In this document: positions 3,332 to 45,971 of the stretch, one piece after another
Position numbering within the stretch: the first letter of the stretch is position 1
Layout of the letters: every line of letters begins with the position of its first letter
IMG/VR virus record: IMGVR_UViG_2724678985_000012
Source of the DNA: a virus
Lineage: Duplodnaviria; Heunggongvirae; Uroviricota; Caudoviricetes
Strand: one strand, 5' to 3'
Length of the DNA: 64,000 nt
Notes under the pieces: generated by a model
Database searches by the model: none
What the model saw: only the letters and a program-made list of their open reading frames with translations
Told to the model about the DNA's origin: nothing
Translations under genes and position numbers: made by a program

Positions 3332-4692
3332 GTCTGGTTAATTGGGAGGAGCACCGCGCCCGCTTTATAGCGTTGCGTGAAGAAAAAGGGATCACTGTAA
3401 AGGAATACTGTGAGGAGCATGGCCTTAGCTTCAATACAGCCAGAAAGCATCTCAATATGAAAAAAAATGAGGTGCGGTCGCAGGTAAAGACAACAAAAAA
3501 AAGCACCAAATCACCTGAAAAAAAACGGGCGGGAAGAGCAACAAAAAAGCTGGAAGAGGGTGCAGAAAAAACAAAATTTACAGAAATTGACAATTCGCAG
3601 GGCGCAGGTTCTTTCCGAAGTATGCCGAGAAAGAAAACTTCGGATCATGAAAATAATGCAAATAATAACAATGAGATAAAAGAATCTGTCAGGAGATCAT
3701 TGCGCGAAAAAATGGCGAAAATGATCCCCGAAGAAGATAAAAGCGCCCCAAAAATTGAGGGATCTTCAGCAATGATCCCTGGCGGTGCTGTGCAACGTGC
3801 CACATTGCCCACTACGAATGTGGCTCGCGACATGATGAAGAACGGCGCAGAAGAACACCTGCGGTTAGCAATTCAAATGGCGCAAGAGCGCGCACTTCAG
3901 TATCAAAGCATTGTTGATCAGGAGGCCGAACGTCTACAGGCGGAAATAGACGCCTTGGGCGATAAAGAGCCAGAAGGAATGCACCCTGGGCAGCGCCTTC
4001 TCGGTCTAATCAGTGACGCGGCCTACTACATGAATGATTTTATCAGTAGGTTGGCAGCTATATATCAGTCCGAACAAAAGCTGCGACAGGGGGATGAAAA
4101 GCTTCGTCAGAGCGCTCGCCAGCAAGCATTCAAAGAGGCTGAGGCCAGAGAAAAACTCGAATTAGCACGCCTACAGGCCGAACAGCGTGGCAAAGAGATT
4201 GAATATCGCATTGGCGCTGACGCACGCGCTGCCAGAGTTATCGCCGCCGCTATACGTATGCGTGAGCGCGAGGAACTGGATGATATCGGTGTTGCTGAAT
4301 ACATCGAGCGCCAGGGGGTCAGCGTCCCGGCTATCCTCGCGGCGCGCGCGGCGAAAGCTATCACTCTTCTCGAACCACCTGTTTCTGACGTCAATGATGT
4401 TGATGATGAACAGCTGGACAAAGAGGCAAGGGAGTTTGCAACGCTTCAGGCTAACCATCCGCAATGGCTGGCAGAGCGCCGGGCGGATGTGGCAACCATT
4501 GTTGAAGAATTGGGGTGCGGAGATTACGACCGCAATGGCGAGCGTAAAGCTGGAGAATTCGAGGCCAACGACGAAGAGCTGGATATTGACCCTTCGGCAA
4601 CGGCTGAAATTTACGGTGATTATGATGCATCTGATGCAGGGTATGACGCCGGAGATGATGATATCGCGATAGAACCGCCGGAGGATGATTAA
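3328..4692 (+). CDS. pacA: PacA-like terminase small subunit
   Basis: 454 aa, coupled to downstream PacB; acidic C-terminus; contains GATC-hexamer cluster. Confidence 0.65.
   Translation: MSLVNWEEHRARFIALREEKGITVKEYCEEHGLSFNTARKHLNMKKNEVRSQVKTTKKSTKSPEKKRAGRATKKLEEGAEKTKFTEIDNSQGAGSFRSMPRKKTSDHENNANNNNEIKESVRRSLREKMAKMIPEEDKSAPKIEGSSAMIPGGAVQRATLPTTNVARDMMKNGAEEHLRLAIQMAQERALQYQSIVDQEAERLQAEIDALGDKEPEGMHPGQRLLGLISDAAYYMNDFISRLAAIYQSEQKLRQGDEKLRQSARQQAFKEAEAREKLELARLQAEQRGKEIEYRIGADARAARVIAAAIRMREREELDDIGVAEYIERQGVSVPAILAARAAKAITLLEPPVSDVNDVDDEQLDKEAREFATLQANHPQWLAERRADVATIVEELGCGDYDRNGERKAGEFEANDEELDIDPSATAEIYGDYDASDAGYDAGDDDIAIEPPEDD
3641..3780. other. pac-like packaging site candidate: clustered GATC hexamers in two opposed groups
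   Basis: GATC at 3644, 3696, 3723, 3761, 3774; GATCAT elements on one side, TGATCC/GATCT on the other, as in the P1 pac site inside pacA. Confidence 0.5.
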
Positions 4693-6227: not shown

Positions 6228-7265
6228 TTACCAGAGCTTCGCGGCGTACTGCGTTTGGGGGAATGTGTATCCGTAACGTTCTTCGATTGCTTTGCCGTAT
6301 TTTTTACGAGCTTCATTCAGTTTAATGCCGGTCAGGTCGTCTCCAGAGGCCATCATTACGTCTAACAATTCCAGATCCATTTTATCCAGCCTTGCCATTG
6401 CTTCACGTGATGTACGTATCTTACGTTCAATGATATGGCGAATAGCCGGATCGGCATCCTCCAGCATCTTAGCGGATTTCTGCTTAAGGCTTTCATTGCG
6501 AATATCGATGTTCCTTAAGATGTACGACTTCGCAACGTAGCTTGGCTGGTGTTTTTCCAGGTCACGAACACGATATAAGTTAAAATCGCCGAGAAGGCTG
6601 CAAGGTACCGATTCGACGCCAGAATAAATTGTAATGCTCCGGCGTTCACCAACATTATTGACAACGGGGATCGTTGTCTTCGGTAGTCTTGCGAAAACCA
6701 ATGCGCCATGTGCGCCAACTCTAAAGCGAGAAAGGGCATTGCTGCCTTCGATGTTTGTTGTCAGCACAACATCTGTATATGCCTCTTTACGCGCCCGGTA
6801 GATCTCGCCTTCAGGCTCAGCTTCAAAGAAGCGCTGTTCTTCTTCAAGAGCACCTACGATTTGAGAAAAAACCCTATTTTTCAGGCTTTTCTTTATGATT
6901 TTGTCGTATTTTTTTAGCAATTGTTCACGTGTAAATGTACGTGTTGTTGTAGCGCTTTGCACAACGACATGCGTGCTTTGATTGGTGTCCTCAATGATGA
7001 ATGGGATCGGAGAATATACAGACTCAACAATGTTCGACGCTTTGCCGTCGGCATCGCGGCACATGTCAACGAAGGCTTTCCATTCAGCAAGACATTTTTC
7101 AGCTTCTTCTAATATGTTTTGGTCATGCGTTAATGCAACATGGCGGAATTCCTCGCCAGCATAACTGGTATCATGGAAAACAGAGTTTGCGACCACCAGC
7201 TCTTTCCACCGTTCAGCGGTTTGCAGGAACCGTTTGTACTCTTTCTCGATCGACTTCTTACTCAT
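6228..7265 (-). CDS. Putative immunity repressor (C1-like by position and operator context)
   Basis: 345 aa between pacB and lox/cre, where P1 carries c1; operator-like motif 15 bp upstream of its start. Sequence identity to C1 not verified. Confidence 0.4.
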   Translation of the reverse strand: MSKKSIEKEYKRFLQTAERWKELVVANSVFHDTSYAGEEFRHVALTHDQNILEEAEKCLAEWKAFVDMCRDADGKASNIVESVYSPIPFIIEDTNQSTHVVVQSATTTRTFTREQLLKKYDKIIKKSLKNRVFSQIVGALEEEQRFFEAEPEGEIYRARKEAYTDVVLTTNIEGSNALSRFRVGAHGALVFARLPKTTIPVVNNVGERRSITIYSGVESVPCSLLGDFNLYRVRDLEKHQPSYVAKSYILRNIDIRNESLKQKSAKMLEDADPAIRHIIERKIRTSREAMARLDKMDLELLDVMMASGDDLTGIKLNEARKKYGKAIEERYGYTFPQTQYAAKLW

Positions 7266-7279
7266 TATTCCTACTCGAT

Positions 7280-7294
7280 TTAGTTTTCTAACAT
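7280..7294 (+). promoter_or_regulatory. C1-type operator-like site (TTAGTTTTCTAACAT)
   Basis: Exact copy of the dispersed motif; second inverted copy with one mismatch at 7364-7378. Confidence 0.5.
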
Positions 7295-7474
7295 AAAATT
7301 ACTATGACAAATTTATGTCGAATAACAGAGTGAGTAAAGGATCGAACTGTGATTTTTTGTCATCAATTTTAGAAAACCAACCGTAGAAACCACACTTCGC
7401 AAATTAAAGACCATGAAGGCAACGTGTTACTGGTCATCATCAATCTATGATGGATTTAAAAAAATCGGCATTTT

Positions 7475-14347: not shown

Positions 14348-14641
14348 TTATGGTTGAATCCAGTTATCTTCAATAGCAATGCTTAATCTTTGTAACCATT
14401 CTGCTAATTTCAGCATTGCTTCTCTTTCGCTTAAACCACACGGAAAATCATCAAGCGATATTGTTGGCTTGAAGTTTCCTAAATTATCCATTTCGACGGT
14501 CAGATTTTGCTCCAGCACGGTATTTCTTACGCGGCTATTGTGCCGAAGCAAATATACTGAACGTGATTTATTGGTTTTGTGGTCGAAAGTATATTCGGTA
14601 AGTATCATCTGGCTTCCGCCATGATTATTACCGCGCCACAT
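14348..14641 (-). CDS. Hypothetical protein
   Basis: 97-aa ORF. Confidence 0.35.
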   Translation of the reverse strand: MWRGNNHGGSQMILTEYTFDHKTNKSRSVYLLRHNSRVRNTVLEQNLTVEMDNLGNFKPTISLDDFPCGLSEREAMLKLAEWLQRLSIAIEDNWIQP

Positions 14642-14664
14642 AATTACTCCGTGTTAATTGAAAT

Positions 14665-14967
14665 TTAGCTATTAATCTTCACTTTTATCGCGAACACCTT
14701 TACCGGTTTATCACCGAAGTGCGGATGTGTGATTGTTTTTATTTCATATCCGTTATACGGGACGTCAATTCTGCGACTGAAGTCTTCGCGCTTCGGATAT
14801 CCCTTTGTGATAATCAGGCGGTCATACTTACGGTTAACGAGGCGCTTATTCCAGTAGTCATTACACAGGCGATACTCTTCCGTTTTCTCCCCTCGAATCA
14901 TGGCATCGAAGTATTCACCTTTAACGGCAAGTTGCAGGTTAGCCATTACCTCACCTCCAGTCTCCAT
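14665..14967 (-). CDS. ASCH-like domain protein
   Basis: 100 aa; GEKTEEYR resembles ASCH GxKxxExR motif. Confidence 0.4.
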   Translation of the reverse strand: METGGEVMANLQLAVKGEYFDAMIRGEKTEEYRLCNDYWNKRLVNRKYDRLIITKGYPKREDFSRRIDVPYNGYEIKTITHPHFGDKPVKVFAIKVKINS

Positions 14968-15206
14968 ACCGCCTGACCAATCCGGCTGGCATGGGTATCT
15001 TTGGATACTGTTCCGTCTTTAGCCAGCTCCATAAGAATTTTGCGCAAATCTGCCGAACGCCATTCTTCATCAGGAAATTCCTTCTCCATTGCCAACCGCA
15101 GATTCCAGGTTGCCATCCTGAATGGATATTCCCCGCCGAGAGCTTTATCTTGCAGGGCAGCCCGGGAACGCATCACCTGCAAAACCTTCTCTTTTACATC
15201 CATCAT
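14946..15206 (-). CDS. Hypothetical protein
   Basis: 86-aa ORF, coupled to neighbours. Confidence 0.35.
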   Translation of the reverse strand: MMDVKEKVLQVMRSRAALQDKALGGEYPFRMATWNLRLAMEKEFPDEEWRSADLRKILMELAKDGTVSKDTHASRIGQAVWRLEVR

Positions 15207-15778
15207 TTCGCCTCCTGCGGCGGTTCCGGTAGCGGCATCCAGTGAGTTGCTTGCTCAATACCATTACCCGGCTTAATCGTTGCATCTCCGCGCCGAAAGG
15301 TGCTTCCGGTATAGCGTGCGGAGCATATTAGCGGTTCAACCAGAGAGCTATCGAAATTCACCGAAATAAGCACGTTCTGGTTCTTTTCAGGCATCCGCTC
15401 ACTACAGCTTATCCAACCATCCGGAGTTACCGGCACTGGCTGGGCGGTGTAAAGTGGAACAACTCGCCCTCCCCATTGCTTAACACTACTCTCAGCGAAC
15501 ACTAAATGCTCAGTCCGATAATACCCAGGGGCATCAATATCTTTTCTTTCGCTATCCCACATGTAAACCACCGGTTCTGCTTCCAGTGATGCCAGTGCAA
15601 TTCGTGCCAGCTCACGCACAACTTCAGGGGGCGCGTAACGGTCATTCAGGTCATCCCACAGGCGTAGCATGTTATCGCTACCAGGGTGAACATCCTCGTT
15701 AGTTCCGGCAAGCGCACTAATAACCTCATCGGCTGCTTCAATAATTTTCTGTGCCTGTTCTCTGGTAATAGTGGTCAT
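15203..15778 (-). CDS. Hypothetical protein with DUF551-like C-terminus
   Basis: 191 aa; C-terminal WISCSERMPE...THWMPLPEPP typical of lambdoid DUF551 proteins. Confidence 0.45.
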   Translation of the reverse strand: MTTITREQAQKIIEAADEVISALAGTNEDVHPGSDNMLRLWDDLNDRYAPPEVVRELARIALASLEAEPVVYMWDSERKDIDAPGYYRTEHLVFAESSVKQWGGRVVPLYTAQPVPVTPDGWISCSERMPEKNQNVLISVNFDSSLVEPLICSARYTGSTFRRGDATIKPGNGIEQATHWMPLPEPPQEAK

Positions 15779-23730: not shown

Positions 23731-23975
23731 AACATAAGCACTGCGAAAAGCTCAATACCAAGTTCAAGTAGCGCCAACGCCCCGAAAAACAACACATAGA
23801 ACAGGCCAATCTCATTCACAGATGGCTGGTGGATCGCACTTAAAGCTATAAGCATCATGTCCTCCAAACAGTTATCAGGAATGATATTAATGTTTTGTAT
23901 TAGAAAATCAATTTTGAATATCTAACCATTTTGATCAATCATAGAAAAATCGCTGAAAAGTAAGAGGCTGCCATC

Positions 23976-25581: not shown

Positions 25582-26522
25582 TGAATCTGTCCATCTCTCA
25601 AAAAGCGACAATGACCAGTATTGAGATCGCGGAACTGGTGGGAAGTCGTCACTCTGATGTTAAACGCAGCATCGAAAGACTTGTTGCTAAAGGAGTTATC
25701 CAACATACGCCATTGGCTACAGTTGAGAATAATCAATCACTTAGCCCTAATAAATACACAAAAGCCTATTTCTTCGAAGGCGAACAAGGCAAGCGCGATA
25801 GTATTGTCGTCGTCGCGCAGCTCTCTCCCGAATTCACCGCCCGGCTGGTGGACCGCTGGCGCGAATTGGAGAATGCCCGGGTACAGTTAAAATCAAAAGC
25901 CGAAATTCTGGCTGAAATGGCGCAAATGCATCTTGAACATGAACGCCGGATCAACGCCGTAAATGCCCAGGTAGCCGAGGTATCGGCACAAGTGTCCAGG
26001 GTCGCTGAAACCGTTGAGCAAATCAAGAAAGGCAATATGCCGGAAGGCTACATTGGCTACCGCCAGCTGGCGGCAAAATGCGGCCTGACCGAAGCCAAAT
26101 GTCGCAACCTGGTCAACGCTTACCGGATTCCCACCGATACGCATGAGTTTTTAACTCCCGATGGTTTGCTTGCGCGACGCTCCATTGTGGCCCTGGCCCC
26201 CTTCCGGAAAGCCTTTAAGCAGGTGATGTCGGAGGCAGAACCACGCAATAAACGCTGGTATCATCCAAAGATGGGGATGTTTCAGGCAATCAACCATCCT
26301 GTGCCTGAAAGCCCAAAGGATAATCTGTCACTACATACCGCCAGAGAGAAGATCAGGACTGGATACGCAACAGTGTGTCGTCGTTCTTCCTGGCCTGAAG
26401 GTATATGGGTGTGGCCCGAAGGTGGATCACGAAAGCACTGGCGCACTATCCGGGATGGGAAAATCCATGCTATTGATTTAGCTCCAGAGGATGTTGTTGC
26501 TACGGACTGGATTGTTAGTTAA
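25581..26522 (+). CDS. Rha-family phage regulatory protein (possible antirepressor)
   Basis: 313 aa; N-terminal MTSIEIAELVGSRHSDVKRSIERL typical of Rha domain; coupled to icd-like ORF. Confidence 0.6.
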   Translation: MNLSISQKATMTSIEIAELVGSRHSDVKRSIERLVAKGVIQHTPLATVENNQSLSPNKYTKAYFFEGEQGKRDSIVVVAQLSPEFTARLVDRWRELENARVQLKSKAEILAEMAQMHLEHERRINAVNAQVAEVSAQVSRVAETVEQIKKGNMPEGYIGYRQLAAKCGLTEAKCRNLVNAYRIPTDTHEFLTPDGLLARRSIVALAPFRKAFKQVMSEAEPRNKRWYHPKMGMFQAINHPVPESPKDNLSLHTAREKIRTGYATVCRRSSWPEGIWVWPEGGSRKHWRTIRDGKIHAIDLAPEDVVATDWIVS

Positions 26523-26649
26523 TAGCTTTTGCCCCGGTCAGGCCGGGGCATGATACCAATAAATTGCATAACATAGTGTAGATTAGTAAAATAGCATACT
26601 CACACAGCTTTATAATTATTTGTTTTTTTACGTTAAAGGATGAATAACT

Positions 26650-27000
26650 TTGGCTACTAAAATTAACTTAGAAAATCCTCGGACAGGCGAGTCCATCTCA
26701 GGCTTTTATGGATTCTCCTGGACTACGTTCTTTTTTGGTGCCTTCCCGGCTTTGTTCAGGAAAGACTTTATAACTTTCATCGGGGTGTTCGTTGTGATGC
26801 TAATCCTGGCATTCCTCACTGCAGGAATTGGTCCTTGGGTAGCTTCACTTGTCTGGGCATTTATATACAATAAATATTTCACCGTAAATAAGATAAAACA
26901 AGGATTTGTATTTGCTGGCTCTCACACAGAAAATGAGTTAGCCGCCAGCAAACTTGGATTGGTCTTAAACCAAAACAACTGCAAAACTATTACCGAGTAA
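26650..27000 (+). CDS. Small inner-membrane protein (two TM segments)
   Basis: 116 aa, TTG start with AGGA RBS. Confidence 0.35.
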   Translation: MATKINLENPRTGESISGFYGFSWTTFFFGAFPALFRKDFITFIGVFVVMLILAFLTAGIGPWVASLVWAFIYNKYFTVNKIKQGFVFAGSHTENELAASKLGLVLNQNNCKTITE

Positions 27001-34379: not shown

Positions 34380-35360
34380 GTGGCCCAGGAGTTACAACAA
34401 TATTTTCTACAGTCAGTGCTCATTAACGATAACAAAGTGCCACGAGACTGGATTTTTACCGCAGTATATGTAGAAAAAACCAGCCTCAAAGCCCCTTTGC
34501 TAAAACTGGAAATTCATGACGCTACCGGCACCGTAATTGATGACTGGAAAGCCAAATACGGTGCATCGCTGGTGGCTGAAATGGGCGATCCAAACGGTAA
34601 TGCAGGCACTTTTAAAACAGATTTCTTTGTTACGTCTGCAATGCTGGCTGGTGATGTTGTTACCGTTATTGCTGTCAGTGAAGACGTGCGCAGGTTTAAG
34701 ATCCCCTCCCCGCGCACAAATTTACATACCAACAAAACACCAGACGCTATATTCAAGGCATATTCCGGCAAACTTAAAATTACCAGCAGCGTGCTAAAAC
34801 GCGCAGTTACATATCATCTGAATGCTGGTGACAAACCGTCAAAAATGCTTTCGGAGATAGCGCGAGACAAAGGTGCATTGTGTTGGGTATGTCGGGGGGA
34901 ATTTAACTTTTACACCCTGGCTGATCTGATGAAGCAAACGCCATCATTTACCTACGAGGGGAATAACCCTAAAGCAGAATACACTTTGTCAAAAATGCGC
35001 CTACTCCAACAGGAACATGCGACAACAGCAAAGAATCAATATCGTTTTGTTGGGTATTCCATGACCGATGGCTACGTCGAATATGGCGATAGCTCACTCC
35101 CAGTGCGTTATATATCCGACTCTGATATGGAAACTCTTCGCAATATGCAGCTGTCTCTCGTCCCCAAAATGGATATAGAAGTCGCAGGCAATCCTGATAT
35201 AAAACCGGGGATGGTAATAGAGATTATCGTATACCGCTATGACCAGGAAAACCGCATTGATGAATCAATGCCCCGTAAGCTGATAGTAAAAAATGTTGCG
35301 CACTTTGAGGACCGCGTAGGCTACACAACACGAATGATATTGGGAGTGCCTAACAAATGA
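34380..35360 (+). CDS. Hypothetical protein (putative baseplate/tail assembly)
   Basis: 326 aa. Confidence 0.4.
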   Translation: MAQELQQYFLQSVLINDNKVPRDWIFTAVYVEKTSLKAPLLKLEIHDATGTVIDDWKAKYGASLVAEMGDPNGNAGTFKTDFFVTSAMLAGDVVTVIAVSEDVRRFKIPSPRTNLHTNKTPDAIFKAYSGKLKITSSVLKRAVTYHLNAGDKPSKMLSEIARDKGALCWVCRGEFNFYTLADLMKQTPSFTYEGNNPKAEYTLSKMRLLQQEHATTAKNQYRFVGYSMTDGYVEYGDSSLPVRYISDSDMETLRNMQLSLVPKMDIEVAGNPDIKPGMVIEIIVYRYDQENRIDESMPRKLIVKNVAHFEDRVGYTTRMILGVPNK

Positions 35361-36010
35361 AGCGTAGAGCGCAAATTGTTGGAACTGTGCACCCGGCAGG
35401 GCTTATGCGTGCTCAAGTCCGTGTTTTACCTGACTGGAATGGCGTTCCTGATGACGATCTACCCTGGGCGGAATACCTGTTACCCATCGGAAACGCTTTT
35501 GTACCCACAGTCAAAGGTGACCTGGTCTGGGTAGAGTTTCCTTATTTAGATGTTAACGGTCGAATAGACACCAGACGCCCAATGATAGTTGGTGCCGCTC
35601 AGGATGCACCGGGAGGAATTCCAAACGTTGCACCAGAAGCATCTGGCAAAGGCAACGGCTGGACGCCGCCGGAAGTAGATGGAGCACCTCCCCGCCCCCA
35701 AATCTCAGCAACGAAAGACTTCGTTATTCACCGCAACAATATTCTTGAAGTACGAACTGCTGGTGGCGGCTATGAAATTGCCAATACGGCAGCAGGCTCA
35801 AGGATTGGCATGAATGAGTCCGGGCAGATATATATCATTGGTCCGGCTGATGTAATCGTGAATGCAGGAGGGAGTGTTAACGTCAAATCAGCCAACAACA
35901 TCAATGTTAAAGGGGAAAATATTGCTGTCACCGCTAACGGAGACATAGCTTTCAAGGCAGGAGGAACCTTTCAGGCCACTGCTAGCAACTTCGATTTCAA
36001 GAAAGGATAG
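35357..36010 (+). CDS. Baseplate spike-like protein (gpV / gp45-type OB-fold plus beta-helix)
   Basis: 217 aa; N-terminal G.V......RV...DW...DL.W pattern and Gly/Asn-rich repetitive C-terminus. Confidence 0.45.
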   Translation: MKRRAQIVGTVHPAGLMRAQVRVLPDWNGVPDDDLPWAEYLLPIGNAFVPTVKGDLVWVEFPYLDVNGRIDTRRPMIVGAAQDAPGGIPNVAPEASGKGNGWTPPEVDGAPPRPQISATKDFVIHRNNILEVRTAGGGYEIANTAAGSRIGMNESGQIYIIGPADVIVNAGGSVNVKSANNINVKGENIAVTANGDIAFKAGGTFQATASNFDFKKG

Positions 36011-36020
36011 AAAATGCACC

Positions 36021-36063
36021 CATTTGTGTTAGATAATTAATATGTATTTTCTAACACAAATGG
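36021..36063. promoter_or_regulatory. Palindromic operator-like element upstream of rdgC
   Basis: CATTTGTGTTAGA ... TCTAACACAAATG, 13-bp inverted repeat with 17-bp spacer; arms contain the TCTAACA operator core. Confidence 0.45.
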
Positions 36064-36069
36064 TGAGAC

Positions 36070-36975
36070 ATGAGATCAGTCGCTTTCAAAAATATCTTCA
36101 TCTATCGTCTTTCACGCGAAGTTAGCTGGGATACTGCAGAAGTAAATGCAGCCCTTAGCAAGTTTGTGTTTACCCCATGCGGTTCTCAGGATATGGCTAA
36201 AGCTGGTTGGACCCCCGTTCTTGGCGACAACCTCACCCATGAATACCAAGGTTTTCTTCTGATACAGCATAAACGAGAGGAAAAAATCCTACCCTCTCAA
36301 GTGCTCAAAGAAGAGTTACAGAAAAAAATCCTGACACTTGAAGAAGAGCAAGACAGAAAGCTGAAGAAGACTGAAAAAGATTCGCTGAAGGATGAAGTGC
36401 TTCACTCTCTGCTTCCTCGTGCTTTCACGAGAAAATCAGTCGCTAAAATCCTGATAGACCGAAGCAATCATCTGGTTTTTGTCGAGGCCAGCAGTGCTAA
36501 AAAAGCAGAGGATCAGCTGGCTTTGTTACGGAAATCGCTTGGCAGCTTGCCCGTTGTCCCCTTCTCTCCGAAAGACCCATTAGAACTGACCATCACTGGC
36601 TGGATTAAAAATGGCTTCCCGAACGGTTTCCGTGCCGGTGAGGAAGCGACCTTAAAAGCATTGCTTGATGATGGCGGCGCGGTCCGCTGCAAAAAAGTGG
36701 ACCTGCTATCCGACGAGATCATGAGTCATATAGAAGCTGGTAAGGTTGCAACCACAGTTGCGGTTAACTGGCAAGACCGTGCATTTTTCAGACTGAATGA
36801 CGATATGAGTATCAAGGCTTTGTCGTTCAGCGACGAATTGTACGACCAGAACGACGATATTGATCGAGAGGATGTTGCGCAACGATTTGACGCTGACTTT
36901 ATCCTGTTTACTGCTGAATTATCCGCGATGTTCACTTCGCTGGTGGAGGCCGTTGGTGGTGAAGCAGAACGTTAA
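36070..36975 (+). CDS. rdgC: RdgC recombination-associated protein homolog
   Basis: 301 aa; alignable end to end with E. coli RdgC but clearly divergent. Confidence 0.85.
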
Positions 36976-36988
36976 CAATAGACCTCTG

Positions 36989-37639
36989 ATGGTGAGTCTT
37001 TGTGATTTCACGGGGAAAATGGTCGCCCCCTGGCTGGAGCATGGTATAGATGCTGTTATCGTCGATCCACAACACGCAGAGACCAGAGATGAGCTGATGC
37101 AATCAGGCGCAGTTCTGACACGTATCAGTGCGATTATCGATAGTGATGAAGTTTATGCTTTTCTCCGAAATAATTTACAACGTATTGTGTTTTTAGCTGG
37201 TTTTCCGCCGTGCACGGACCTTGCTGTTTCCGGTGCGCGCTGGTTTGCGCATAAGGCTGACAAAGATCCGTTTTTCCAGTTCAAAGCGATGCAGGTCGTC
37301 TGGCAGTGTTACGATATTGCAAAGATGATTGGTTGCCCGTACATGATTGAAAACCCGGTCAGCCAAATATCGACATTCTGGCGTAAACCTGATCACATCT
37401 TCCATCCTTACCACTTCACTGCATATTGCAAGGAAGACAATTACACCAAAAAAACATGCCTCTGGAGCGGGCAAGGCTTTGTCATGCCTGATGCCCTAAT
37501 GGACGAATCATTAGGCAAGCCAGATAACAGAATCCATACCGCGCCACCTGGACCTGAAAGGGCTAATTTTCGAAGTGCTACTCCGCATGGATTCGCAAAG
37601 GCAGTTTTCGAAGCGAATAAGGGGGTGCTCTATGAGTAA
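36989..37639 (+). CDS. Short C5-cytosine DNA methyltransferase-like protein
   Basis: about 217 aa from MVSLCDFTGK; motif I-like DFTGKM, motif IV GFPPC, motif VI ENPV; no obvious target-recognition domain. Confidence 0.4.
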   Translation: MVSLCDFTGKMVAPWLEHGIDAVIVDPQHAETRDELMQSGAVLTRISAIIDSDEVYAFLRNNLQRIVFLAGFPPCTDLAVSGARWFAHKADKDPFFQFKAMQVVWQCYDIAKMIGCPYMIENPVSQISTFWRKPDHIFHPYHFTAYCKEDNYTKKTCLWSGQGFVMPDALMDESLGKPDNRIHTAPPGPERANFRSATPHGFAKAVFEANKGVLYE

Positions 37640-38537
37640 ATCTATAGCAAGCATAGCCATAAAAAAACAGGATACGATGGCTGAAATTAGCTATATGCGC
37701 ACCATTCGGACTCCGGATGAATATGAGCGCCCGATCTTCAAATGGGTAGGCGGTAAATTCTCAGAGTTGCCTACAGTGCTTGAGCATCTACCACACGGCA
37801 AGCGGTTAATAGAACCATTCGTTGGTGGCGGTTCCGTATTTACAAATGCAGGATTTCACCACAACCTGCTTAATGATATTAACGGTGACCTGATTAACTT
37901 CTATCAGACATTGCAGCGAGAAGGACATTCGCTCGTCACGCTGTCATATAGTTTTTTCCAAAATTACAACAACGCTGACGCTTACCTCGAAGTGCGTGAG
38001 GCATTTAACAGAGGAAAGTATGACCAGCTACATCATGCTGCCGCCTTTTTGTACCTTAATCGGCACTGTTTTAATGGCGTAACGCGGTACAACCAAAATG
38101 GCGAGTTCAACGTGGGGTATGGCAAATACAAAGCGCCCTACTTCCCACATGCAGAGATGGAGGCATTTTTGGCTGATGACGTACTCAAAAACACGTCCTT
38201 TGTATCAGGTGACTTTGCTGGCGTCATCGAGGCGGCTGGTGAAGGCGATGTGATTTTTTGCGATCCGCCGTATGAACCGCTGCCGGATACAGAAGGGTTT
38301 ACCAGTTATTCAGGAAATAGCTTCCGTTTCGACGAACAGAAACGGCTGGTATCTCTATTGGTGGAAGCCCACCAGCGCGGCGCTAAGGTAGTGATAACAA
38401 ATAGTGGTGCGCCAAACATCCGTGAACTATATGAAGGAAACGGGTTTAAAGTACATCATATGGCAGCCAGACGGTCGGTTTCCTGCAAGGCGTCAACACG
38501 TGTAGTTGCTAACGATATAATTGCGATAATGAAGTAA
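37632..38537 (+). CDS. dam: Dam-family N6-adenine (GATC) DNA methyltransferase
   Basis: 302 aa from MSKSIAS; FKWVGGK, FVGGGSVF, NRHCFNG, CDPPYEP motifs; alignable with E. coli Dam. Confidence 0.85.
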   Translation: MSKSIASIAIKKQDTMAEISYMRTIRTPDEYERPIFKWVGGKFSELPTVLEHLPHGKRLIEPFVGGGSVFTNAGFHHNLLNDINGDLINFYQTLQREGHSLVTLSYSFFQNYNNADAYLEVREAFNRGKYDQLHHAAAFLYLNRHCFNGVTRYNQNGEFNVGYGKYKAPYFPHAEMEAFLADDVLKNTSFVSGDFAGVIEAAGEGDVIFCDPPYEPLPDTEGFTSYSGNSFRFDEQKRLVSLLVEAHQRGAKVVITNSGAPNIRELYEGNGFKVHHMAARRSVSCKASTRVVANDIIAIMK

Positions 38538-38569
38538 AAAACGCCGCAGTAGCGGCGTTTACTTTTTTA
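38538..38569 (+). terminator. Rho-independent terminator after dam
   Basis: AACGCCGC-agta-GCGGCGTT followed by TACTTTTTT. Confidence 0.7.
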
Positions 38570-38585
38570 TGTGGCGAAATACCTA

Positions 38586-40247
38586 TTAACCTAACTTCGC
38601 CCAGGTATCACGCAGCCCAACGGTGCGGTTAAATACCGGTTTTTCCGCCGTGGAATGGCGGCTGTCGAGGCAGAAATAACCTTCACGCTCAAACTGGAAT
38701 GCTTTACCCGCTACCGCTTCTTTCAGCGACGGTTCAGCAAAGCCCTGTTTGATCACCAGCGATTCCGGGTTAATCACCGACAGGAAATCATCCGCAGCAC
38801 CTGGGTTCGGTACACTGAACAGACGGTCGTACAGGCGAATTTCAACCGGCAGCGCATGGGCCGCGCTTACCCAGTGGATAACGCCTTTCACTTTACGACC
38901 ATCTGCCGGATCTTTGCTTAAAGTATCGGCATCGTAGGTACAGAAGATGGTGGTGATATTGCCTTCGGCATCTTTCTCCACGCGTTCAGCCTTAATGACG
39001 TAAGCATTACGCAGACGCACTTCTTTACCCAGCACCAGACGTTTGTACTGCTTGTTAGCTTCTTCGCGGAAATCGGCGCGGTCGATCCAAATCTCACCGC
39101 TAAACGGCACCTGACGGCTACCCATTTCCGGTTTGTTTGGATGGTTCGGCATGGTGACCATTTCGCCTTCGCCCTGGTAGTTTTCGATAACCAGTTTCAC
39201 CGGATCGATAACCGCCATTGCGCGCGGGGCATTTTCGTTGAGATCTTCACGGATGCAGGATTCCAGCGACGCCATCTCAATGGTGTTGTCCTGCTTGGTC
39301 ACGCCGATGCGTTTGCAGAACTCACGAATAGAAGCAGCAGTGTAACCACGACGACGCAGACCGGAAATGGTCGGCATACGCGGGTCATCCCAGCCTTCAA
39401 CGTGCTTGTCGGTTACCAGCTGGTTCAGCTTACGCTTGGACATCACGGTGTATTCCAGATTCAGGCGCGAGAATTCGTACTGGCGCGGATGAACAGGAAT
39501 GGTGATGTTGTCCAGTACCCAGTCATACAGACGACGGTTGTCCTGGAACTCAAGCGTACACAGAGAGTGCGTAATACCTTCCAGCGCATCGCTGATGCAG
39601 TGGGTGAAGTCGTACATCGGGTAGATGCACCACTTGTTGCCAGTCTGGTGGTGTTCAGCAAACTTAATACGGTACAGCACCGGGTCGCGCATCACGATAA
39701 ACGGCGAAGCCATGTCGATTTTCGCACGCAGGCAGGCTTTACCTTCTTCAAAACCACCGGCACGCATTTTTTCGAACAGCGCCAGGTTCTCTTCAACGCT
39801 GCGGTCGCGGTACGGGCTGTTTTTACCCGGCTGCGTCAGGGTGCCGCGGTATTCGCGGATCTGTTCCGGCGTCAGTTCGTCAACATACGCCAGTCCTTTG
39901 TTGATCAGTTCAACAGCATAGGCATGGAGTTTGTCAAAATAATCGGAGGAGTAACGGATGTTGCCAGACCAGTGAAAACCTAACCATTCAACGTCGTTTT
40001 TAATCGACTCGACGTACTCGATATCTTCTTTTACCGGGTTAGTGTCGTCGAAACGCAGGTTGCACTGGCCTTTATAGTCCTGGGCGATCCCGAAGTTCAG
40101 GCAGATAGATTTCGCATGACCAATATGCAGATAGCCATTCGGTTCCGGCGGGAAACGGGTATGTACTGTGGTGTGCTTACCACTGGCCAGATCTTCATCG
40201 ATGATCTGACGAATAAAGTTAGTCGGGCGGGCTTCTGCCTCACTCAT
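38586..40247 (-). CDS. glnS: Glutaminyl-tRNA synthetase, near-identical to enterobacterial chromosomal GlnS
   Basis: 553 aa; HIGH and VMSKR motifs; differs from E. coli GlnS (as recalled) at only a few positions. Confidence 0.95.
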
Positions 40248-45941: not shown

Positions 45942-45956
45942 AACTCTAATGATTTG

Positions 45957-45971
45957 TGTTAGAAAACTAAA
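45957..45971 (-). promoter_or_regulatory. C1-type operator-like site (reverse orientation)
   Basis: TGTTAGAAAACTAAA exact reverse complement of motif. Confidence 0.5.

Follow-up and report, generated by a model that had tools for sequence, protein, structure and literature searches.

We analysed a stretch of 64,000 nucleotides from a virus of the Caudoviricetes (IMG/VR record IMGVR_UViG_2724678985_000012), hereafter the window, and concentrated on a locus of three genes on its + strand: rdgC (36070-36975), which encodes an RdgC-family protein and is the counterpart of P1 hrdC, a short open reading frame (ORF) for a compact protein that resembles cytosine-C5 DNA methyltransferases and has no recognition domain (36959-37639), and dam, which encodes an N6-adenine DNA methyltransferase of the D12 class (37632-38537). 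This three-ORF layout had been proposed in an earlier note made from the sequence alone, and the coordinates of all three genes are confirmed; the overlap of a few bases that it described between the short ORF and dam is an overlap of 8 nt at the dam start (ATGAGTAA).

Over its whole length, the region 36000-38600 has 91% nucleotide identity to phage D6 (MF356679); among complete E. coli genomes it has matches in 101 plasmids and in no chromosome. Furthermore, a wider stretch of the window is 100% identical to the E. coli plasmid pRHB04-C06_3 (CP058021.1). Judged by these matches, the window is a D6-like, P1-related phage-plasmid. The nucleotide identity to D6 is uneven across the locus: compared over 35357-38537, it is 99.4% for the baseplate gene, 84.5% for rdgC, 88.3% for the short C5 gene and 98.9% for dam. 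Because rdgC and the short gene are far more diverged than their flanks (~99%), a mosaic exchange is indicated, and the pattern points to recombinational replacement of the rdgC/short-gene segment. The arrangement itself is already annotated in the D6 GenBank record (Gilcrease and Casjens 2018) and has largely been described before: orf64 is called there a 'putative DNA-cytosine methylase', and orf63 a 'site-specific DNA-adenine methylase, similar to C-term half of P1 dmt only'.

The two outer genes are readily assigned. The RdgC homolog (301 residues) matches Pfam family PF04381 over its full length (E value 4.8e-102, 341.7 bits), passes the cut-off of the NCBIfam equivalog NF001462 (387.1 against 330) and corresponds to the annotated orf65 of D6. 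The earlier note had called it a divergent RdgC homolog; the homology stands, and the divergence is not marked, as the protein is 54% identical to P1 HrdC. Its ratio of non-synonymous to synonymous substitution rates (dN/dS) against D6 is 0.08. The Dam protein scores 249.5 bits against TIGR00571 (cut-off 114.85) and matches PF02086 at 1.7e-56, and its translation contains the motifs FCDPPYEP (DPPY) and EPFVGGGS (FVGGG). With residues 465-753 of P1 Dmt it shares 67% identity, and with the product of D6 orf63 99.3%. Dam is therefore complete, as had been noted, with a length of 301 rather than 302 residues.

The reading frame of the short ORF is open from 36860 and stops at 37639. Two start codons are candidates: ATG 36989, the choice of the Prokaryotic Genome Annotation Pipeline (PGAP), which gives 216 residues, and GTG 36959, the choice of the D6 annotation, which gives 226 residues. 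We slightly prefer GTG 36959 as the probable start, because a GGAGG Shine-Dalgarno sequence lies 9 nt upstream of it and because it is also the sole usable start of a fused C5::Dam allele described below. Residue numbers are nonetheless counted from ATG 36989. On the E. coli plasmids examined, PGAP labels the product 'hypothetical'. The gene differs from D6 by 52 synonymous and 23 non-synonymous substitutions (dN/dS 0.09), and this ratio marks the short ORF as a selected, working gene and not a decayed one.

Could the split between the short ORF and dam be an artefact, in which a sequencing frameshift or a recent mutation has cut one Dmt-like gene in two and left the short ORF as its N-terminal part? 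At this position a single fused ORF does exist in P1 and in some D6-like plasmids, and the first 25 codons of dam match the linker of the fused form in position. Against this, D6 and 87 complete E. coli plasmids have these two ORFs as well, the short protein does not resemble the Dmt N-terminal half in sequence and belongs to a stand-alone family of ~220 residues found in thousands of phages and prophages, and both the short gene and dam are under purifying selection, each with its own start signals. The artefact, which the earlier note had itself named as a possible refutation, is thus refuted and has practically no chance of being right; the short ORF is a gene separate from dam.

Searches with conventional models gave little for the short protein. 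It has no Pfam match, PF00145 included, at E <= 0.1, a scan of NCBIfam was likewise blank, the protein matched no PDB sequence, and neither phmmer nor two profile searches of PDB sequences found a canonical C5 methyltransferase. Among 97 diverse relatives, which form the set used for all conservation counts here, PF00145 is the only Pfam family touched by more than two members, through eight sub-threshold matches (best E value 0.0039). The short protein matches PHROG 757, annotated as 'DNA methyltransferase', at an E value of 8.9e-78 over residues 2-214 of 216. Relatives occur in 1,589 phage records, among them those of Drexlerviridae, Webervirus, phAPEC8-like phages and Campylobacter phages, and 6,933 homologs were found in a large protein collection. 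At 50% identity the family forms 2,601 clusters, nearly all of them of 200-280 residues. One member, P0176 (348 residues), is fused to a C-terminal HNH endonuclease domain and may be a single-chain methylase-nuclease.

An AlphaFold2 model built from 65 sequences has a mean predicted local distance difference test score (pLDDT) of 87.6 and a predicted template modelling score (pTM) of 0.86. With this model, Foldseek returned the catalytic domains of C5 DNA methyltransferases as best matches, DNMT3A and DNMT3B at a probability of 0.99, and the short protein is accordingly predicted to have the catalytic-domain fold of these enzymes. The motifs follow in the order I, II, IV, VI, VIII-like and X-like, which is that of canonical C5 enzymes. 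Of the three motifs read by the earlier note, IV (FPPC, residues 72-75) and VI (ENP(V), 121-124) are sound, whereas motif I is degenerate: the region reads SLCDFTGKM, with a single glycine, in a family whose consensus is S-L-[FCY]-D-x-[TS]-G. A target-recognition domain was not found in the model, as had been noted for this protein separate from a complete Dam; between the motif-VIII-like strand and the last, motif-X-like helix there are only ~30 residues of lower-confidence loop (168-195), and this loop differs in length among relatives.

C75 of FPPC, E121 and P123 of ENP, and K154, T156 and W159 are invariant in all 97 relatives, and at least 90% of the set keep D26, G19, P14-W15 and the C-terminal series R195-S196-x-T198-P199-x-G201-F202. 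R195 and S196, directly before the last helix, are found in 93 and 88 relatives. The catalytic cysteine context, whose absence had been named beforehand as a possible refutation, is therefore intact and invariant across the family. In the relative P0220 an intein sits exactly before the catalytic cysteine (GFPP/C...HN/CTNLSVSG). Since inteins typically sit in active sites, its position is circumstantial support for the importance of this cysteine. As a separate observation, inteins of the Hint plus LAGLIDADG kind interrupt both C5 types, P0220 in the compact family and P0366 in the C5 domain of a P1-type Dmt.

A link to a measured activity comes from the Drexlerviridae phage K42. Escapers of this phage from retron Ec86 had lost a 711-bp 'dcm' gene, whose expression raised 5-methylcytosine (5mC) in the multicopy single-stranded DNA (msDNA) of the retron, as measured by liquid chromatography-mass spectrometry, and a C82A/E128A/K175A/K176A mutant gave no such rise (bioRxiv 10.1101/2023.08.16.553469). 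A CCWGG target was assigned by analogy with the host Dcm, together with a mutation of the msDNA site that abolished defence (bioRxiv 10.1101/2023.08.16.553469). We found that the homolog in the BASEL phage FritzSarasin, 36.7% identical to the short protein of the window, has C82, E128, K175 and K176 at exactly the K42 positions when read from an internal Met (236 residues); these residues align with C75, E121, K154 and K155 of the window protein. Because of this positional agreement we place the K42 'Dcm' in the same compact family, an assignment drawn from the alignment. By analogy with this characterised relative, at only ~37% identity, the short protein would be a catalytically active C5 methyltransferase. 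The specificity of the compact family is not firmly established by the K42 CCWGG assignment.

The near-invariant R195-S196 pair, just ahead of the last helix, bears on a different reading, in which the group that the short protein transfers is not methyl but, for instance, the carboxymethyl of carboxy-S-adenosylmethionine (Cx-SAM) as in CmoX, or in which its substrate is something else than double-stranded phage DNA. E. coli itself makes Cx-SAM. In CmoX the carboxymethyl group is held by an arginine, R350, that replaces the motif X asparagine, Asn304, of M.HhaI (PMC12783734). However, the R-S motif is shared by the K42 relative, whose product was 5mC against a 5mC standard, the window protein has FPPC and not the SPPC signature of CmoX, and the annotation of the plasmid stretch covered lists neither CmoA nor an amide ligase. 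We consider this reading very unlikely.

The earlier note had left room for a degenerate methyltransferase, for a subunit or for something with a different activity. The first two options are disfavoured, the degenerate enzyme by the dN/dS of 0.09, the invariant catalytic residues and the reported activity of a family member, the subunit by the gene neighbourhoods of the relatives. No adjacent Dam was found for any of the relatives examined outside P1/D6-type phage-plasmids, in six places; they include FritzSarasin, the early region of a Pseudomonas prophage, and the nin regions of lambdoid prophages of Cronobacter and Cedecea. Since relatives elsewhere have no neighbouring Dam, an obligate role of the compact protein as a Dam subunit appears unlikely from its distribution. 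A rival reading is a catalytically dead, methyltransferase-like subunit that would regulate or target the adjacent Dam in the manner of DNMT3L and DNMT3A. For such a partner speak the 8-nt overlap of the two genes, the existence of C5 module::Dam fusions (P1 Dmt and P0121), the missing recognition domain and the degenerate motif I. Set against these are a catalytic cysteine and glutamate invariant in 97 diverse relatives, the intein of P0220 at that cysteine, the fact that most relatives stand alone with no Dam next to them, and the dependence of the K42 activity on the catalytic residues. A dead partner of Dam is hence highly improbable, and an autonomous compact C5 DNA methyltransferase is the simplest reading and the one that fits best.

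The statement in the earlier note that P1 encodes a single fused enzyme was correct: Dmt is one protein of 754 residues, in which a PF00145 domain precedes a D12 domain, and its gene lies in the uhr-hrdC-dmt operon under the C1 operator Odmt. The window, with its two ORFs, does not have this one-polypeptide form. BLASTP found no similarity between the short protein and P1 Dmt, the N-terminal half included. When two family alignments were compared with that half by hhalign the probability was 0.2, with the second run giving the correct PC-to-ENV register. A search for homologs of the Dmt N-terminal half, aimed at a diverse canonical profile, returned mostly near-identical P1-type proteins and none below 70% identity. 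As an aside on annotation, the NCBI records P0281, P0300 and P0306 name P1-type Dmt a 'multidrug DMT transporter permease', which looks like an error carried over from the gene symbol dmt.

The compact and the canonical C5 module can occupy the same slot. In the D6-like plasmid pKY1497_2, whose flanks are 98.9% identical to the window, 1,758 bp encoding a P1-type C5 domain and linker in frame with Dam replace 724 bp of the window (36983-37706 by blastn breakpoints), that is, the short C5 gene and the first 25 codons of dam. The product is a single ORF of 870 residues with PF00145 and PF02086 domains; about the first 240 residues are near-identical to P1 Dmt, and the Dam half is of the D6 type. 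Among complete E. coli genomes, 11 (pKY1497_2 and 10 others) have the fused junction; the split form is that of D6 and the 87 plasmids mentioned above. Furthermore, a distant Citrobacter phage-plasmid carries uhr-like, rdgC, compact C5 (254 residues) and dam (270 residues) genes in that order. A metagenomic contig encodes P0121 (563 residues), a compact-C5::Dam fusion that shares 58% identity with the window protein in its N-terminal part and has a 32-residue insertion in the variable loop; the upstream ORF on this contig is not RdgC. The canonical form also exists as a stand-alone protein, P0271 (473 residues), so that canonical and compact C5 modules each occur both fused and split. Together with the swap at one and the same slot, this argues that the compact gene supplies the same function as the canonical C5 domain.

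Taken together, these results lead us to view the locus, with a probability of about 0.78, as the D6-type version of the P1 hrdC-dmt operon, in which an autonomous compact C5 DNA methyltransferase and a GATC-specific Dam would jointly do the job of P1 Dmt. Under this hypothesis, the three genes would be translationally coupled, and the RdgC-family DNA-binding protein would modulate RecA-type recombination on phage DNA. The compact enzyme would keep the Rossmann core, with a motif-I-like loop, an acidic motif II residue, the nucleophilic cysteine of FPPC, ENP and the motif-X-like helix, and its ~30-residue loop would stand in for the canonical recognition domain. It most likely uses S-adenosylmethionine (SAM) and makes 5-methylcytosine on phage and host DNA, while Dam would methylate GATC. 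The two activities may free the phage-plasmid from the Dam/Dcm status of the host, and the methylation may protect its DNA from restriction and might serve packaging as in P1. The C5 module is an exchangeable cassette, either the compact gene or a P1-type C5 domain fused to Dam. Gene structure, family membership, predicted fold, conservation, purifying selection and this cassette swap are shown by the data above, whereas the catalytic activity is carried over from the K42 relative. The biological role is drawn by analogy with P1, where Dmt has been reported necessary for methylation of the pac site and for replication in dam- hosts (PMC12707154), and where hrdC and dmt were non-essential in a dam+ host in a CRISPR interference screen (PMC10695390). 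On this analogy the D6-type operon would make the element independent of host methylation and may guard it against restriction. It may also carry a cost: phage Dcm and Dam have both been reported as retron triggers (Eco1/Ec86 and Sen2), which suggests that each of the two enzymes could expose the element to such defence.

Several observations weigh against this view. The window protein shares no more than 36-37% identity with relatives of the characterised K42 enzyme, whose CCWGG target was itself assigned partly by analogy with the host Dcm; its motif I is degenerate, with CDFTG in place of FxGxG; and the P0121 fusion is known from one 2-kb contig and is to be taken with caution. In addition, neither GATC nor CCWGG is depleted in the window, so that the composition gives no hint of a target.

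Lacking a recognition domain and carrying a near-invariant arginine beside the cofactor-side helix, the compact family may not be a simple sequence-specific analogue of Dcm. Its members could instead be cytosine modifiers of relaxed or partner-guided specificity, for instance positioned by Dam near GATC as hinted by the natural C5::Dam fusions, or could also be able to use carboxy-SAM. We regard this as an unlikely extension; if it were true, the cytosine modification pattern in D6-type phage-plasmids would differ from that of the host Dcm.

With an autonomous compact C5 methyltransferase as the preferred reading, the locus has several implications. A natural minimal C5 enzyme poses the problem of how a protein with no recognition domain reads its target, and the exchange of compact and canonical cassettes is a clean natural experiment in functional equivalence. 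The compact family is among the most widespread phage methyltransferase families, yet it has no Pfam or NCBIfam model; such a model would improve the annotation of phage and plasmid methylomes. Carriage of the operon may also shape the host range of D6-like elements, as both kinds of methyltransferase are reported retron triggers.

Upstream of the operon, a palindrome (36020-36063) lies between the stop of the baseplate gene (36010) and the start of rdgC. Its 18-nt arms, CCATTTGTGTTAGATAAT (36020-36037) and ATTTTCTAACACAAATGG (36046-36063), are 94% complementary, and as RNA it would fold with -23.6 kcal/mol (z = -4.3). The palindrome is 100% identical in D6, while the adjoining rdgC is only 84.5% identical. 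In pPSS-08-1_2 both arms are changed symmetrically, from CCATTTG...CAAATGG to CCAATTG...CAATTGG, and the spacer has five substitutions. Because the arms compensate each other despite the substitutions in the spacer, the symmetry is maintained by selection.

The half-site TTTGTGTTAGA has 6 matches in the window against 1.3 expected, a number that none of 100 shuffles reached. Outside the palindrome, single copies stand at 45953 and, each with one mismatch, at 7287, 23894 and 58043. This enrichment favours a protein-binding motif, and the scattered copies may be binding sites of one regulator. Single copies of the motif written as TTT(G/A)T(G/A)TTAGAAAA lie at 7283-7298 (- strand), 23893-23908 (+) and 45952-45967 (+), one of them between a leftward operon and the capsid gene. 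On the other hand, the 3' arm abuts the ribosome-binding site of rdgC, so that an RNA hairpin acting in processing or in the control of translation is an equally good candidate. A weak sigma-70-like match, TAGAAA-18-GATAAT, overlaps the left arm. Thus, of the 'palindromic operator-like element' noted earlier, the palindrome is real and the operator role plausible and unproven.

Other identities considered for the palindrome fared less well. A -22 box of a P1-type late promoter was rejected (LPlyz has AAGTGATTT), as was an intrinsic terminator, there being no T-run; the likeness to the P1 C1 operator ATTGCTCTAATAAATTT is only loose, and no copies of the palindrome were found upstream of the c1-like repressor gene. 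In a Citrobacter freundii phage-plasmid (L009, 2579-2622) a different, perfect 12-nt inverted repeat, GTACAAAGTGCA and TGCACTTTGTAC with a 20-nt spacer, occupies the same place, after the baseplate gene and before the uhr-like/rdgC operon.

Downstream, a hairpin resembling a bidirectional terminator (38539-38560; the 9-bp stem includes 6 GC pairs, and each strand has a T-run) separates dam from the convergent glnS gene (38586-40247, - strand), which encodes a full-length glutaminyl-tRNA synthetase of 553 residues and is annotated as orf62 in D6. Other annotated genes of the plasmid include a PAPS-reductase-family protein (14463-15341, -), a dCTP deaminase (26188-26805, +) and a dUTPase (6697-7191, +). 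The densest GATC cluster of the window, at 3581-3860, comprises five sites within 200 bp, of which four read TGATC. It falls within the gene for the c1-like repressor, just downstream of pacB; in pacA itself there are only two GATC sites. The hexamers of this cluster resemble TGATC(A/G), the sequence that is methylated in the pac site of P1.

Among known enzymes, the canonical C5 methyltransferases M.HhaI and DNMT3A/3B share with the short protein the predicted fold, the motif order, PC and EN(V/P), and the motif-X-like terminal helix; DNMT3 itself, like the short protein, has almost no recognition domain. In contrast to these enzymes, the short protein is ~100-250 residues shorter, has no significant PF00145 match and carries Lys154/Thr156/Trp159 where QxRxR would be expected, a correspondence read from motif order and not from a structural alignment. 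The K42 group is set apart from the window protein by its motif I, which is the canonical FDGSG, by a variable loop of greater length and by the lack of linkage to Dam or RdgC. At the level of the operon, P1 uhr-hrdC-dmt follows the same logic as the window, from an RdgC-family gene to a C5 module to a Dam module. The P1 C5 module, however, is a canonical PF00145 domain of ~460 residues fused to Dam, with no detectable sequence similarity to the short protein, and the genome locations differ, with uhr and the C1 operator Odmt upstream in P1 whereas the operon of the window follows baseplate genes and the palindrome. Closest of all is phage D6, in which orf65-orf64-orf63 are the same three genes as in the window, in the same order and with the same overlaps.

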